From Escherichia coli (lineage in GTDB: Bacteria; Pseudomonadota; Gammaproteobacteria; Enterobacterales; Enterobacteriaceae), in the NCBI RefSeq assembly GCF_003334355.1, contig NZ_QOWP01000012.1: DNA of 64,000 nucleotides; one strand, given 5' to 3'. A program made the position numbers and the translations under genes. The first letter of the stretch is position 1. Each line of letters starts with the position of its first letter. Below, piece by piece: positions 1-60,514 of this stretch. Under the pieces are notes generated by a model. That model did not search any database, was not told the origin of the DNA, and saw nothing but the letters and a program-made list of their open reading frames with translations.

Positions 1-95
1 CTAATTTTTCAGGACGTATTGCAACGATCCAGTCTGGTACTTTGATACCGTAAAATCTGGAGCGTCCATCTCATTATCCCTGTAAAACGCGCCCT

Positions 96-117
96 CAGCC
101 CACATCCATGTGGGCTG
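96..117. other. Perfect inverted repeat CAGCCCACAT-cc-ATGTGGGCTG about 210 bp upstream of lysO
   Basis: Read directly: 10-nt arms at 96-105 and 108-117 are exact reverse complements. No clear U-run follows on either strand. Function unknown. Confidence 0.4.
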
Positions 118-329
118 CCCCGGCCTTCAGGGAACGCCTCGGCGATTTTGACGCCACCAACATCGGTGCAGTTTGTAATTAAAGCGCAAGAATATCTTTA
201 AATGAAAACGAATACTCTACTGCTCCTTATGCATAACATTTCCTTTTAATTGCAACTTTACTCGTCCTTCCGCTTTCAGTAGTGTGTCATCGCGCATTTC
301 GACTTCATCTTTGCAAGGACTGGGTTTTC

Positions 330-1229
330 ATGTTTTCTGGGCTGTTAATCATTCTGGTTCCCCTGATTGTGGGTTACCTCATTCCGCTTCGCCAACAAGC
401 TGCGTTAAAAGTTATTAATCAGCTATTAAGCTGGATGGTTTACCTTATTCTCTTTTTTATGGGTATCAGTCTGGCGTTTCTCGATAACCTCGCCAGTAAC
501 CTGTTGGCGATTCTGCATTATTCTGCCGTCAGTATTACCGTTATTTTACTGTGTAATATTGCCGCCCTGATGTGGCTGGAGCGAGGCCTGCCGTGGCGCA
601 ACCACCATCAGCAAGAAAAACTCCCGTCGCGTATTGCGATGGCGCTGGAGTCGCTAAAACTGTGCGGCGTAGTAGTGATTGGTTTTGCCATTGGTCTGAG
701 TGGACTGGCTTTCTTACAACACGCGACCGAAGCCAGTGAATACACGTTAATTTTGCTACTTTTCCTCGTTGGTATTCAGTTGCGCAATAATGGCATGACC
801 TTAAAGCAGATTGTCCTTAATCGCCGGGGAATGATTGTCGCCGTGGTGGTGGTTGTCAGTTCATTAATTGGTGGTTTAATTAACGCCTTTATTCTTGATC
901 TCCCCATCAATACCGCGCTGGCAATGGCCTCCGGTTTCGGCTGGTATTCTCTTTCCGGTATTTTATTGACCGAATCTTTTGGTCCGGTAATCGGGAGTGC
1001 GGCGTTTTTTAATGATCTGGCCCGTGAACTGATTGCTATTATGTTGATCCCTGGGCTGATTCGCCGCAGCCGCTCTACTGCACTGGGCTTATGCGGTGCC
1101 ACATCAATGGATTTCACCCTGCCCGTTCTTCAACGTACTGGCGGGCTGGATATGGTCCCAGCGGCAATTGTTCACGGTTTTATTCTTAGCCTGTTAGTGC
1201 CGATCCTCATCGCCTTTTTCTCTGCGTAA
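330..1229 (+). CDS. lysO: Lysine exporter LysO (YbjE), inner membrane protein
   Basis: ORF 282..1229 trimmed to the ATG at 330, preceded by AAGGA; N-terminus MFSGLLIILVPLIVGY and 299 aa match my memory of YbjE; hydrophobic throughout. Confidence 0.9.
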   Translation: MFSGLLIILVPLIVGYLIPLRQQAALKVINQLLSWMVYLILFFMGISLAFLDNLASNLLAILHYSAVSITVILLCNIAALMWLERGLPWRNHHQQEKLPSRIAMALESLKLCGVVVIGFAIGLSGLAFLQHATEASEYTLILLLFLVGIQLRNNGMTLKQIVLNRRGMIVAVVVVVSSLIGGLINAFILDLPINTALAMASGFGWYSLSGILLTESFGPVIGSAAFFNDLARELIAIMLIPGLIRRSRSTALGLCGATSMDFTLPVLQRTGGLDMVPAAIVHGFILSLLVPILIAFFSA

Positions 1230-1262
1230 TACCTCTCTGGCGGTAGATCCCTGCCGCCAAAA

Positions 1263-1276
1263 TTGCGCTAAATCAA
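1263..1276 (+). promoter_or_regulatory. Candidate FNR box TTGCG-N4-ATCAA upstream of hcp
   Basis: Matches 8 of 10 consensus positions of TTGAT-N4-ATCAA; centred about 100 bp upstream of the hcp start. hcp-hcr is a known FNR-activated anaerobic operon. Confidence 0.4.
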
Positions 1277-1334
1277 TCTCCCTTAAAGTTGCATGAAAAA
1301 TCCCTTTTATCCCCGCGTTAAGCGTCTTAACCTT

Positions 1335-1360
1335 AAACATGTATATTAAATATAACTTTA
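1335..1360 (+). promoter_or_regulatory. Candidate NsrR operator, AT-rich imperfect palindrome in the hcp promoter
   Basis: AACATGTATATTAAATATAACTTT resembles the NsrR inverted-repeat consensus (AAGATGCATTT-N-AAATGCATCTT type); hcp is a known NsrR target. Exact boundaries uncertain. Confidence 0.4.
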
Positions 1361-1372
1361 AAAGGTGTGATC

Positions 1373-3025
1373 ATGTTTTGTGTGCAATGTGAACAAACTA
1401 TCCGTACTCCGGCAGGAAACGGCTGCTCATACGCGCAGGGGATGTGTGGTAAAACGGCGGAAACTTCTGACCTTCAGGATTTACTCATCGCGGCGCTGCA
1501 AGGGCTTTCTGCCTGGGCGGTAAAAGCGCGTGAATACGGCATCATCAACCACGATGTTGACAGCTTCGCGCCACGTGCCTTTTTCTCAACCCTGACCAAC
1601 GTTAACTTCGATTCTCCGCGTATTGTCGGCTACGCTCGTGAAGCGATTGCCCTGCGCGAGGCGCTGAAAGCGCAATGCCTGGCTGTAGATGCCAACGCGC
1701 GCGTCGATAACCCGATGGCTGACCTGCAACTGGTGAGCGACGATCTCGGCGAGCTGCAACGTCAGGCAGCAGAATTTACCCCTAACAAAGATAAAGCGGC
1801 GATTGGCGAAAACATTCTCGGCCTGCGTCTGCTGTGCCTGTATGGCCTGAAAGGTGCGGCGGCCTATATGGAACACGCGCATGTTCTCGGTCAATACGAC
1901 AACGATATTTATGCCCAGTACCATAAAATCATGGCGTGGCTGGGGACCTGGCCTGCCGATATGAACGCGCTTCTTGAGTGTTCAATGGAAATCGGCCAGA
2001 TGAACTTCAAAGTGATGAGCATTCTGGATGCAGGCGAAACCGGTAAATACGGTCACCCGACGCCAACCCAGGTCAACGTCAAAGCGACGGCGGGTAAATG
2101 CATTCTGATTTCCGGTCACGATCTCAAAGATCTCTACAACCTGCTGGAACAGACCGAAGGCACGGGCGTTAATGTCTACACCCACGGCGAAATGCTGCCT
2201 GCGCATGGCTACCCGGAGCTGCGTAAATTCAAGCATCTGGTCGGTAACTACGGCAGCGGCTGGCAGAATCAGCAAGTGGAGTTCGCTCGTTTCCCTGGCC
2301 CCATCGTGATGACCTCGAACTGCATCATCGACCCAACCGTAGGCGCTTATGACGATCGTATCTGGACCCGCAGCATTGTTGGCTGGCCTGGCGTGCGTCA
2401 TCTGGACGGTGATGATTTCTCTGCGGTTATCACCCAGGCGCAACAGATGGCAGGCTTCCCGTACAGCGAAATTCCGCACCTTATCACCGTGGGTTTTGGT
2501 CGCCAGACGCTGCTTGGCGCTGCTGATACGCTGATTGATCTGGTGAGCCGTGAAAAACTGCGTCATATCTTCCTGCTTGGTGGCTGTGACGGCGCACGCG
2601 GCGAGCGCCACTACTTCACCGATTTCGCCACCAGCGTGCCGGATGACTGCCTGATCCTGACCCTCGCCTGTGGTAAATATCGCTTTAACAAACTTGAGTT
2701 TGGCGATATCGAAGGTCTGCCGCGTCTGGTAGATGCAGGTCAATGTAACGATGCTTACTCAGCGATTATTCTGGCTGTCACTCTGGCAGAGAAACTGGGC
2801 TGTGGTGTGAACGATCTGCCGCTGTCGCTGGTGCTCTCCTGGTTTGAACAGAAAGCGATCGTCATTCTGCTGACGCTGCTTTCTCTGGGCGTGAAAAATA
2901 TCGTCACCGGCCCGACTGCACCTGGTTTCCTGACACCAGACCTGCTGGCGGTGCTGAACGAGAAATTCGGCCTGCGTTCTATCACCACTGTTGAAGAAGA
3001 CATGAAGCAACTGTTGAGCGCGTAA
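1373..3025 (+). CDS. hcp: Hybrid-cluster protein (hydroxylamine reductase / NO-stress protein)
   Basis: 550-aa ORF from the ATG at 1373; N-terminus MFCVQCEQT with a Cys-rich cluster-binding motif; followed directly by hcr. Confidence 0.95.
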
Positions 3026-14442: not shown

Positions 14443-14463
14443 TGCATAAATTCTTATAATGAA

Positions 14464-14497
14464 GACGGACAACCCACTAAGTTGTCCGTCTTTTTTA
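14464..14497 (+). terminator. Intrinsic terminator (10-bp stem GACGGACAAC/GTTGTCCGTC then T6)
   Basis: Perfect stem followed by TTTTTTATTT; lies between the artM BIME and the artJ promoter. Confidence 0.7.
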
Positions 14498-22317: not shown

Positions 22318-23220
22318 CTAACCACCCGTTTTCAGGCAATATTCTGTCGTAGCGTGGCGTTCGATCCAGCGGATCATTTTACCCGCGATGTCGATACCAG
22401 TGGTTTTTTCTATTCCTTCCAGCCCCGGCGACGCATTCACTTCCATCACCAACGGCCCGCGATTAGCACGCAGAATATCCACACCAGCAACGTCCAGCGC
22501 CATCGTTCGCGCGGCTTTTATCGCGATTTCACGCTCCTGTGGTGTGATACTGGCGACGCTTGCCGCGCCGCCACGATGCAAATTGGAACGAAAATCGCCC
22601 TCTTTCGCCCGCCGTTCAATCGCAGCGACCACTTCATCGCCAACAACCAGACAGCGGATATCGCACCCTTGCGCCTCTTTGATATATTCCTGCACCAGAA
22701 TATGCGCGTTCAGACCGCGGAAAGCGTCAATCACGCTTTCCGCCGCCTGACGCGTCTCCGCCAGCACGACGCCAATTCCCTGCGTGCCTTCAACCAACTT
22801 GACCACCAGCGGCGCACCACCGACCATGTCGATTAAATCGCTGGTATCATCCGGCGAATGCGCAATGCCCGTGACAGGCAGGTCGATGCCCTGACGCGCC
22901 AGCAGTTGCATGGAACGCAATTTGTCACGCGCCCGGGCAATGGCGACCGACTCATTGAGCGGATAGCTCCCCAGCATCTCGAACTGGCGCAGTGCCGCCG
23001 TCCCATAAAAGGTAATGGCGGTGCCAATACGCGGGATCACTGCGTCAAAATGGGGTAACTTGCGGCCTTTGTAGTGAATAGAAGACGCCGCAGGATTTAT
23101 GTTCATGTAGCAAGAAAGCGGATCAAGAATTTCAACCAGGTGACCGCGCTGTATAGCGGCTTCACGCAGCCGCTTACACGAATAGAGCGTTCCATCCCGG
23201 GACAATATGGCAATTTTCAC
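22318..23220 (-). CDS. rimK: Ribosomal protein S6 L-glutamate ligase (ATP-grasp)
   Basis: 300 aa; [18 protein letters not shown]; ATP-grasp fold. Confidence 0.93.
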
Positions 23221-36508: not shown

Positions 36509-36550
36509 ACAAAAACTTAAACATGAAGGGGGAGACGCTTTCTCCCCCTT
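36509..36550 (-). terminator. Intrinsic terminator for bssR
   Basis: AAGGGGGAGA-cgctt-TCTCCCCCTT hairpin immediately after the bssR stop, followed on the minus strand by a T-rich tract. Confidence 0.5.
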
Positions 36551-50900: not shown

Positions 50901-50985
50901 GGTTCGGGCACAGATTTCCAAGCGCGGCAGGCATCGGTGCACTCCGCCACGTCATCAGCAATTTATGAGGATGCAGAACGTCCGG

Positions 50986-51648
50986 TTAAATCGACGTTCT
51001 GCCAAACGCTCCCTGCCAGTCCTGCTCAAACTTCGCCACAGCGGCTTCCACCGCCGGATAGCTAATCATCTGTTGTGCCACATCCAGTGGCAGAGTAATT
51101 GATTCACATCCTGCCAGTAAGCAGTCCAGCGCCTGACGCGGGGTTTTGAAACTCGCTGCCAGCACTTTCGCCTGCGGCGCATGCATTTTCAATAACTGGT
51201 GTAAGTCGGTCACAGTCTGAATGCCGCTACCGCCCTGAGCATCAATACGATTAACGTAAGGCGCAACATATTCCGCACCTGCCAGCGCCGACAGCAGCCC
51301 TTGTGCTGCGCCATATACCGCGGTTCCCAGCGTTGGAATCCCTTCCGCTTTTAACATCTTAATAGCTGCCAGCCCCTCGGCGGTCACCGGAACTTTCACC
51401 ACGATATCCGCAATAATAGAACGCAATTTACGTGCGTCATTCACCATCCCTTCAGCAGTGGTAGCCATTACCTGGGCAAACAGACGCCCCTGACCGCCCA
51501 TCGCTTCATGAAGTTGCGGAAGCACAACATCCAGCGGTTTTTTACCCGCGGCGATAATGCTTGGGTTAGTGGTCACACCCGCCAGCGGAAAAATACGTGA
51601 CAGCGCCTTCACCGCAACAACGTCTGAAGTATCCAGATACAGTTCCAT
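50986..51648 (-). CDS. fsaA: Fructose-6-phosphate aldolase 1
   Basis: 220 aa from the ATG ([30 protein letters not shown]); transaldolase-like fold. Confidence 0.92.
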
Positions 51649-57676: not shown

Positions 57677-57734
57677 TTTTGCATTTGTCATCAGCCGCCG
57701 TCACCCCGACAGTATCGGGGTGACGGATAATCAC

Positions 57735-60483: not shown

Positions 60484-60514
60484 AAAAGGCGGACTCATAA
60501 TCCGCCTTTTTTAT
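60484..60514. terminator. Bidirectional intrinsic terminator between convergent ldtB and ybiR
   Basis: AAAAGGCGGA-ctcataa-TCCGCCTTTT: A-run, stem, T-run symmetric on both strands. Confidence 0.7.

Follow-up and report, generated by a model that had tools for sequence, protein, structure and literature searches.

The perfect palindrome upstream of lysO in an Escherichia coli genome is a stem-loop of the TRIP1a intergenic repeat whose pairing is conserved among enterobacterial genera

The perfect palindrome at positions 96–117 of the 64,000-nt Escherichia coli stretch analyzed here (the window) is almost certainly one stem-loop of TRIP1a, an intergenic repeat of about 266 bp, and its stem has very probably been maintained by selection for pairing. 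Window positions 76–400 show no differences from K-12 MG1655, and positions 76–171 are an exact substring of the 266-bp TRIP1a of K-12, for which we compute a G+C content of 65% over the 266 bp. The TRIP1 repeats (TRIP1a–e) go back to a definition by Rudd 1999 (Res Microbiol 150:653, as cited in PMC10888264); Li et al. 2024 (Genes 15:236, PMC10888264), who surveyed them across 6725 genomes, describe an element of 266 bp and 62–65% G+C that occurs in both orientations, has no function assigned, adopts a "double-Y" shape in RNAfold (MFE −143.99) and shows rearrangements between copies. According to the same survey, TRIP1a follows aqpZ at a distance of 70 bp and precedes ybjE/lysO by 158 bp (PMC10888264), and the boundary that we find at window position 171 (330 − 158 − 1) agrees with this placement. 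Sequence identity with K-12, position, the 266-bp length, the 65% G+C content, a stable fold, and about three copies per genome all match the published TRIP1a; the sole difference of the element studied here is its interruption by an insertion sequence (IS), and only part of TRIP1a lies in the window because this IS split the repeat (Table 1). If the minus strand is taken as sense, the remnant is the 5' part of the element and the remainder is on the far side of the IS and not in the window; the AT at positions 76–77 is assignable either to the IS or to its target. As TRIP1a, the feature is already known.

Table 1. Features at the lysO-proximal end of the window, in window coordinates.
Feature	Position	Strand	Basis or remark
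End of a 1386-bp IS110/IS1111-family IS (5' non-coding end upstream of the transposase start)	1–77	−	Locus comparison; RefSeq annotation "IS110 family transposase"
lysO-proximal TRIP1a remnant	76–171	−	94–96 of 266 bp; K-12 identity
Hairpin 2, 5' arm and part of loop (AGGGCGCGUUUUACAGGG on the minus strand)	78–95	−	IS-free locus L002 versus IS-bearing locus L001; TwoAYGGAY alignment
Hairpin 1 of TRIP1a (the palindrome; helix 7 of the family consensus)	96–117	− (tentative)	Fold and covariation
Long-range closing helix, 5' strand (CAAAAUCGCCG on the minus strand)	140–150	−	Helix 2 of the alignment; single-sequence fold
lysO (ybjE) coding sequence	330–1229	+	Context gene; hcp next

The initial annotation had described an exact inverted repeat with 10-bp arms in the intergenic region upstream of lysO, and this description holds: the arms (CAGCCCACAT at 96–105 and ATGTGGGCTG at 108–117, separated by CC at 106–107) are exact, and the ATG of lysO at position 330 lies 213 bp downstream. 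As a single strand the palindrome forms a 9-bp stem capped by a loop of 4 nt, with a predicted energy of −16.4 kcal/mol for the minus strand and −15.6 kcal/mol for the plus strand; the minus-strand form, hairpin 1, reads CAGCCCACA-UGGA-UGUGGGCUG, and its UGGA tetraloop lies within the motif ACAUGGAUGU. Taken by itself the palindrome is not significant, because perfect arms of 10 bp or longer around loops no longer than 10 nt occur at seven loci of the window, where about 1.3 perfect 10-bp-arm palindromes are expected by chance per 64 kb, an expectation that would accommodate a chance inverted repeat without function. The six further perfect inverted repeats (14463–14491, 22717–22743, 36526–36550, 50973–51002, 57698–57726, and 60484–60510; arms of at least 10 bp, loops of 5–10 nt) include at least two with A/T-rich ends, at 36526 (AAGGGGGAGA...TCTCCCCCTT) and 60484 (AAAAGGCGGA...TCCGCCTTTT), and these two look like bidirectional terminators.

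The search for other copies that the initial annotation had suggested finds none in the 64-kb window (up to three mismatches; shuffled sequences lead one to expect 0) and places the palindrome in a small dispersed family. A second TRIP1 copy, between dusC and yohP, has a hairpin identical to the palindrome. When window positions 1–400 were compared by BLAST with 5426 complete E. coli genomes, the alignments broke at positions 76, 139, and approximately 226, and a 251-bp query spanning the palindrome matched a median of three places per genome, with matches in 5426/5426 genomes. An E. coli genome contains about three TRIP1 copies and up to 10; TRIP1a and TRIP1c are 94% identical; in K-12 they occupy about 915,016–915,281 and 2,229,100–2,229,395, respectively, and TRIP1b is situated downstream of putP. 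TRIP1a itself is present in only 70% of E. coli genomes (PMC10888264), and is therefore dispensable.

The lysO upstream sequence that is common to all E. coli starts only at about position 226, and several alleles are found beyond this point. At both the aqpZ–lysO and the dusC–yohP loci TRIP1 occurs in opposite orientations among E. coli strains, with flanks that also differ; by locus comparison these are alternative alleles, not simple inversions, and strains with the inverted allele share only about positions 226–329 with the window. The comparison sets L004 2690–2990 and L006 2470–2750 against L002 and L061; L004 lacks the aqpZ terminator, and K-12 and O157 have different 3' ends of dusC. 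Some strains contain a deletion of roughly 63–75 bp between the short direct repeats GTCGG/CTCGG (L003 2990–3010; window approximately 64–138) that takes out exactly both GGA-loop hairpins, the palindrome included, while the other TRIP1a sequence is kept; these strains share positions 139–329 with the window and lack 76–138.

This allelic variation bears directly on the idea that the palindrome is an operator of lysO bound by a dimeric regulator. Perfect dyad symmetry in an intergenic position 213 bp upstream of the gene is what such an operator would present, but the same sequence stands at dusC–yohP, the element is inverted, deleted across the palindrome (76–138) or IS-split (174 genomes) in many strains that have lysO, and between genera the half-site changes at six of the seven unconstrained stem positions with complementarity kept; we consider the operator highly improbable. 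We found no such operator site in the lysO literature that was searched, and the 2021 LysO paper is silent on the native promoter. The initial annotation had offered a protein-binding site or an RNA structure as the more likely readings; the conserved nucleic-acid structure survives, on the strength of the covariation described below, and the lysO-related operator does not, given the dusC–yohP copy and the inverted, deleted, and IS-split alleles.

A role at transcript ends, as a terminator or a 3'-exonuclease barrier for aqpZ read-through or lysO-antisense transcripts, also seems very unlikely. The palindrome does form a stable GC-rich hairpin, which in strains lacking the IS has a position downstream of aqpZ, and 8 nt past the stem the minus strand has a UUUU, but this UUUU is part of hairpin 2. 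No T-run abuts the stem on either strand, with CCCCGGCC following on the plus strand and AGGGCGCG on the minus strand in place of the U-run of an intrinsic terminator, as had been recognized when a canonical terminator was dismissed. In a promoter and terminator consensus scan of window positions 1–1400 no promoter-like or terminator-like site was found near the TRIP1a remnant, and inspection of TRIP1 5' flanks by eye revealed no convincing conserved −35/−10 elements. The gene aqpZ has a hairpin and T-run terminator of its own, immediately past the stop codon and some 230 bp ahead of the palindrome, and TRIP1a lies 31 bp downstream of that terminator (PMC10888264); the palindrome is not the terminator of the upstream gene, an identity that had been named as one that would overturn the initial reading.

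Relatives of TRIP1 occur in other genera. BLAST against plasmid records gave Klebsiella and Citrobacter matches to TRIP1 of 75–86% identity, and the "plasmid" records that were examined contain chromosomal genes and seem to be fragments of chromosomes filed as plasmids; BLAST of TRIP1 against phage genomes gave no match. In these BLAST-found copies, which are independent of any search pattern, the loop CATGGATG is invariant and the stem is different. We also searched a single genome for each of 100,044 species with the pattern AAGGCNGGG-N8-CATGGATG-N7-AGGG, in which the loop and the unpaired flanks are fixed and the outer seven stem pairs are free, and obtained 48 loci, distributed over Citrobacter, Enterobacter, Klebsiella, Escherichia, and Pseudocitrobacter; in metagenomes the same loop-and-flank pattern recovered at least 120 more stretches. 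Three pattern matches are without any arm complementarity and, as their number is close to the chance expectation, they provide an internal control. The palindrome stem joins CAGCCCA to TGGGCTG in Escherichia, CAGCCCG to CGGGCTG in Klebsiella, GAGCCAG to CTGGCTC in the Citrobacter freundii group, GAACCCG to CGGGTTC in C. amalonaticus, CGACGCG to CGCGTCG in Enterobacter, and CGCCGCG to CGCGGCG in one metagenomic copy.

Several observations concern the surroundings of these relatives. A Klebsiella-like contig from a human-gut metagenome (L069 1547–3422) contains, between convergent genes, a unit that recurs three times in tandem at intervals of about 654 bp, each time composed of two REP-like repeats of about 117 bp and one TRIP1-like element in a BIME-like mosaic, and another stretch (L074) contains two TRIP1 copies 340 bp apart. 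TRIP1 copies with hairpins identical to the Klebsiella or E. coli type were also found in metagenome-assembled genomes labelled Desulfacinum, Proteobacteria bacterium, and Sporobacter termitidis (L021, L026, and L038), in which the TRIP1-bearing contigs are probably enterobacterial contamination of the bins. Near Enterobacter TRIP1-like copies (L018 750–949; L022 6828–7079) we observed a C4 antisense RNA (55.3 bits versus a gathering score of 45) with isrK and c4-a1b1 targets just below their gathering scores (a prophage immunity region of the P1/P7 type), together with an Erse small RNA (Rfam, 173.6 bits); the C4, isrK, and Erse matches are probably unrelated neighbors of TRIP1.

For the covariation analysis we aligned 52 distinct TRIP1 copies from five genera. 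RNAalifold of the 52 copies returns 48 pairs, 24 of them with compensatory changes. In a 59-pair structure, 96.4% of the cells are paired versus 34–45% when the partners are slid by one to three columns, changes on both sides occur in 26 pairs versus 4–8 when slid, and the covariation score is 0.344 versus 0.04–0.075 when slid. The palindrome helix (helix 7) comprises nine pairs with 97.9% of cells paired, and its six pairs with compensatory double changes all fall among the outer seven that the search pattern had left free. The loop of hairpin 1 is AUGGAU in every copy collected, a constancy that the pattern search imposed by fixing the loop and that the BLAST-found copies display independently. 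The conservation of pairing, with compensatory double changes in six of nine stem pairs across genera, makes the palindrome more than a chance repeat. Indeed, a chance origin is effectively refuted by the covariation: compensatory changes extend across five genera, the loop is invariant in the BLAST-found copies as well, and random matches to the flank-and-loop pattern lack complementarity. We regard this reading as having a vanishingly small probability. That the arms vary between genera yet stay complementary indicates a folded single strand and argues against a fixed protein half-site; because of this covariation, we conclude that arm complementarity rather than arm sequence is under selection.

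The palindrome is located inside a multi-helix domain of about 150 nt, whose closing long-range helices (alignment columns 29–49 with 148–185) also covary. The partner of CAAAAUCGCCG is CGGCGAUUUUG, and the helix that they form closes the hairpin domain; in this strain the IS separates the two. Hairpin 2 in uninterrupted copies reads GGGCGCG-UUUUACAGGGAUGUUACCU-CGCGCCC, and 3' of the domain follow a GC-rich hairpin and then another covarying hairpin. Unpaired junction segments such as GGGAUAAG are conserved while the TRIP1 stems covary. With respect to the strand, the minus-strand fold of TRIP1a is more stable by 12 kcal/mol (−143.4 kcal/mol, z = −4.9, versus −131.1 kcal/mol, z = −4.7, for the plus strand), whereas the wobble counts are nearly symmetric between the strands, at 72 G.U versus 46 A.C cells (23 versus 16 pairs) after exclusion of some helices that MAFFT had misaligned (the GC hairpin, and in Klebsiella hairpin 2). 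Relative to crude flanking ORFs, TRIP1 lies in 13 convergent versus three divergent intergenic regions, and we saw no sense/antisense rule for TRIP1 relative to these ORFs. At the minus-strand 3' end of E. coli TRIP1 (L002 2811–2845, a part that this strain has outside the window) an ATG comes after a strong Shine-Dalgarno-like AAGGAG that a covarying hairpin sequesters. The frames opened there have 3–12 codons and differ between copies, and the Klebsiella, Citrobacter, and Enterobacter elements have no ATG at this position; this is probably no gene.

Based on these data, the explanation that we favor, with some confidence, is that the palindrome belongs to a TRIP1a stem-loop working as minus-strand RNA that displays GGA loops to an RNA-binding protein. 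For the hairpin as such, we lean slightly towards action as RNA rather than as DNA. Against the RNA reading count that no promoter-like or terminator-like site flanks the element, so that any transcription of TRIP1 must be read-through, that both orientations occur at one locus, and that TRIP1a is dispensable; we posit that minus-strand RNA would be produced by read-through from neighboring genes and would then fold, and that the tandem GGA-loop hairpins would bind an RNA-binding protein or would stabilize or insulate the transcript. In the present strain the IS1111-type element has split this tandem module and left only hairpin 1 intact.

A role at the level of DNA, in which TRIP1 would be, or would once have been, a recombinogenic or non-autonomous mobile element with single-stranded or cruciform hairpins that a recombinase or transposase recognizes or that are simply tolerated, and in which the palindrome is kept because a propagating master copy needs the hairpin, is a possibility to which we assign a clearly lower probability. 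It would account for copy numbers ranging from three to 13, the latter being the number of TRIP1 places in a chromosome-sized Klebsiella record, for the occurrence of both orientations at one locus, for a stem variant that is homogeneous within each genus, as with lineage-specific expansion or gene conversion, for the tandem REP and TRIP1 arrays with a 654-bp period in the Klebsiella-like contig, for A.C mismatches that are nearly as common as G.U, and for the specific targeting of TRIP1 by an RNA-guided IS; stable DNA cruciforms have in fact been proposed for TRIP1 (Rudd 1999 cited by Li et al. 2024, PMC10888264). However, covariation of helices about 150 nt apart together with conserved unpaired junction nucleotides is typical of functional RNAs, hairpins recognized by transposases are short and local, unlike TRIP1, and TRIP1 showed neither terminal inverted repeats nor target-site duplications nor an associated gene. 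The E. coli copies are at fixed loci (PMC10888264), so that recent mobility is not apparent.

The interpretation of TRIP1 as RNA raises the question of a family and of a protein partner. Searched against Rfam at gathering thresholds, TRIP1 and its relatives gave no family over the element. In E-value mode, intact TRIP1a (a 321-nt search) matches TwoAYGGAY (RF01731) on the minus strand with E = 0.005–0.008 and 30.6 bits, a covariance score that falls short of the gathering score of 43 and does not place TRIP1 in this family. TwoAYGGAY is an RNA for which Weinberg et al. 2010 is reportedly the source. The alignment covers the full model (1–168); in it the palindrome takes the place of hairpin 1, GGGCGCG-UUUUACAGGGAUGUUACCU-CGCGCCC that of hairpin 2, and CAAAAUCGCCG/CGGCGAUUUUG that of the outer helix; at E ≤ 1 only Escherichia copies match, and those of Klebsiella, Citrobacter, and Enterobacter do not. 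The AUGGAU loop of hairpin 1 fits AYGGAY, and hairpin 2 has AGGGAU, AAGGAC or ACGGAC, with usually a purine at the Y position. On the minus strand the GGA loops of hairpin 1 (ACAUGGAUGU) and of the adjacent hairpin 2 (ACAGGGAUGU, UUACAGGGAUGU) are 29 nt apart, a spacing within the range that a CsrA dimer bridges. Against RUACARGGAUGU, a string that recurs in the literature and that we take to be the SELEX consensus of CsrA, we count 9/12 matches for CCACAUGGAUGU and 11/12 for UUACAGGGAUGU, both in hairpin loops supported by covariation; judged by sequence alone, TRIP1 has the GGA in a hairpin loop, the nearness to consensus, and the two or more sites that define a CsrA site. TwoAYGGAY has been proposed as a CsrA-binding RNA (Gardner and Eldai 2015, PMC4333381).

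We are cautious in extending these likenesses to a function. In Potts et al. 2017, the tables of CsrA CLIP-seq contain no peak for ybjE or dusC, and the supplementary text gives no coordinates in the TRIP1a or TRIP1c ranges; since TRIP1a and TRIP1c are so nearly identical, CLIP reads from them may have been discarded as multi-mappers. Specific binding of CsrA by the TRIP1 hairpins is accordingly a proposal that we hold as doubtful. The same doubt attaches to the broader speculation that TRIP1 is a structured noncoding RNA module of four genera, absent from Rfam, whose hairpins bind CsrA or another protein and into which an IS1111-type element homes. If this were true, read-through from three to more than 10 loci would tie lysO, aqpZ, dusC, yohP, putP, and other neighboring genes into the Csr network, or alternatively the TRIP1 transcripts would constitute a dispersed CsrA sponge.

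The element that interrupts TRIP1a in this strain has entered the hairpin-2 loop (ACAGGG^AUGU), about 20 bp to the left of the palindrome. Comparison of the IS-free K-12-like locus (L002) with the IS-bearing locus (L001) reveals a 1386-bp insertion between ...GAGGTAACAT and CCCTGTAAAAC..., with the full IS at L001 1692–3077. In genomes that match, its transposase gene (341 aa) is found immediately to the left of the window; it is followed downstream by a 264-bp non-coding region, and the subterminal inverted repeats are ATGGACGCTCC and GGAGCGTCCAT, the latter at window positions 60–70. A transposase with a downstream non-coding region is the layout of the seekRNA-using IS1111-type elements (PMC11187229). 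The non-coding region of this IS contains TGTTACCTC, the reverse complement of the target left flank GAGGTAACA, as well as TAAAACG, which matches the target right flank, matches of the kind that seekRNA or bridge-RNA guides would have; the end of the IS is present in 179 E. coli genomes, of which 174 have the IS–TRIP1 junction as in the window. Given these flank matches and the recurrence of one junction, this IS appears to be programmed to target hairpin 2 of TRIP1. Identity with ISEc11 was rejected, as target and length differ.

The IS has a consequence for the reading of a published rearrangement. In E. coli SMS-3-5 (NC_010498.1 906511–913585; L062) the gene order is yohF-mdtQ-yohP-[TRIP1 half]-IS-[TRIP1 half]-lysO-hcp, and the genome contains two copies of this IS. 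The 1.3-Mb inversion of SMS-3-5 has been attributed to recombination between TRIP1a and TRIP1c (Li et al. 2024, PMC10888264). Because the IS sits at the inversion junction, it bears on the reading of this "TRIP1-mediated" event, which may have arisen instead by recombination between the two 1.4-kb IS copies.

In part, the meaning of these results is deflationary: an apparent regulatory site of lysO turns out to belong to a repeat that K-12 has been known to contain since 1999, so the palindrome should not be annotated as a lysO operator or terminator. At the same time, TRIP1 is a 266-nt orphan element in the best-studied bacterium, with covariation in at least 26 base pairs across five genera, conserved unpaired nucleotides, and loops that resemble CsrA sites. 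Homologs in Klebsiella, Citrobacter, Enterobacter, and Pseudocitrobacter, with the cross-genus covariation that they support, the TwoAYGGAY- and CsrA-like tandem GGA-loop hairpins, and the TRIP1-targeting IS do not appear in Li et al. 2024 (PMC10888264), the one TRIP1 paper that was searched for them.

Among known repeats, TRIP1 resembles REP/BIME and ERIC/IRU sequences in being dispersed, intergenic, palindromic, found in either orientation, and able to mediate rearrangements, and it shares with REP the targeting by an IS110-family element, as REP is targeted by IS621, and the mosaic arrays that combine REP and TRIP1 in Klebsiella. Unlike REP, whose consensus has about 35 bp, it is much longer, has multiple helices rather than one hairpin, and is present in about three copies per genome rather than hundreds, with the palindrome single in the 64-kb window; its sequence is unrelated to the REP-like units beside the Klebsiella copies. 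Membership in the REP family had been named as grounds for abandoning the initial reading; the dispersed repeat family is real, but TRIP1 is not REP. Among known RNAs, TRIP1 is similar to TwoAYGGAY in its two adjacent hairpins within an outer helix and in the (A)YGGAY of the hairpin 1 loop, with AGGGAU or ANGGAY, not strictly AYGGAY, in hairpin 2, and unlike TwoAYGGAY it is GC-rich, has an extra 3' domain of about 110 nt, and is a dispersed multi-copy repeat. With RNAs of the CsrB/CsrC/RsmZ type it has in common GGA motifs in the loops of short hairpins, of which ACAUGGAUGU and UUACAGGGAUGU are near the consensus, whereas it has two or three such sites where those RNAs have about 10–20, and is without a dedicated promoter or terminator.
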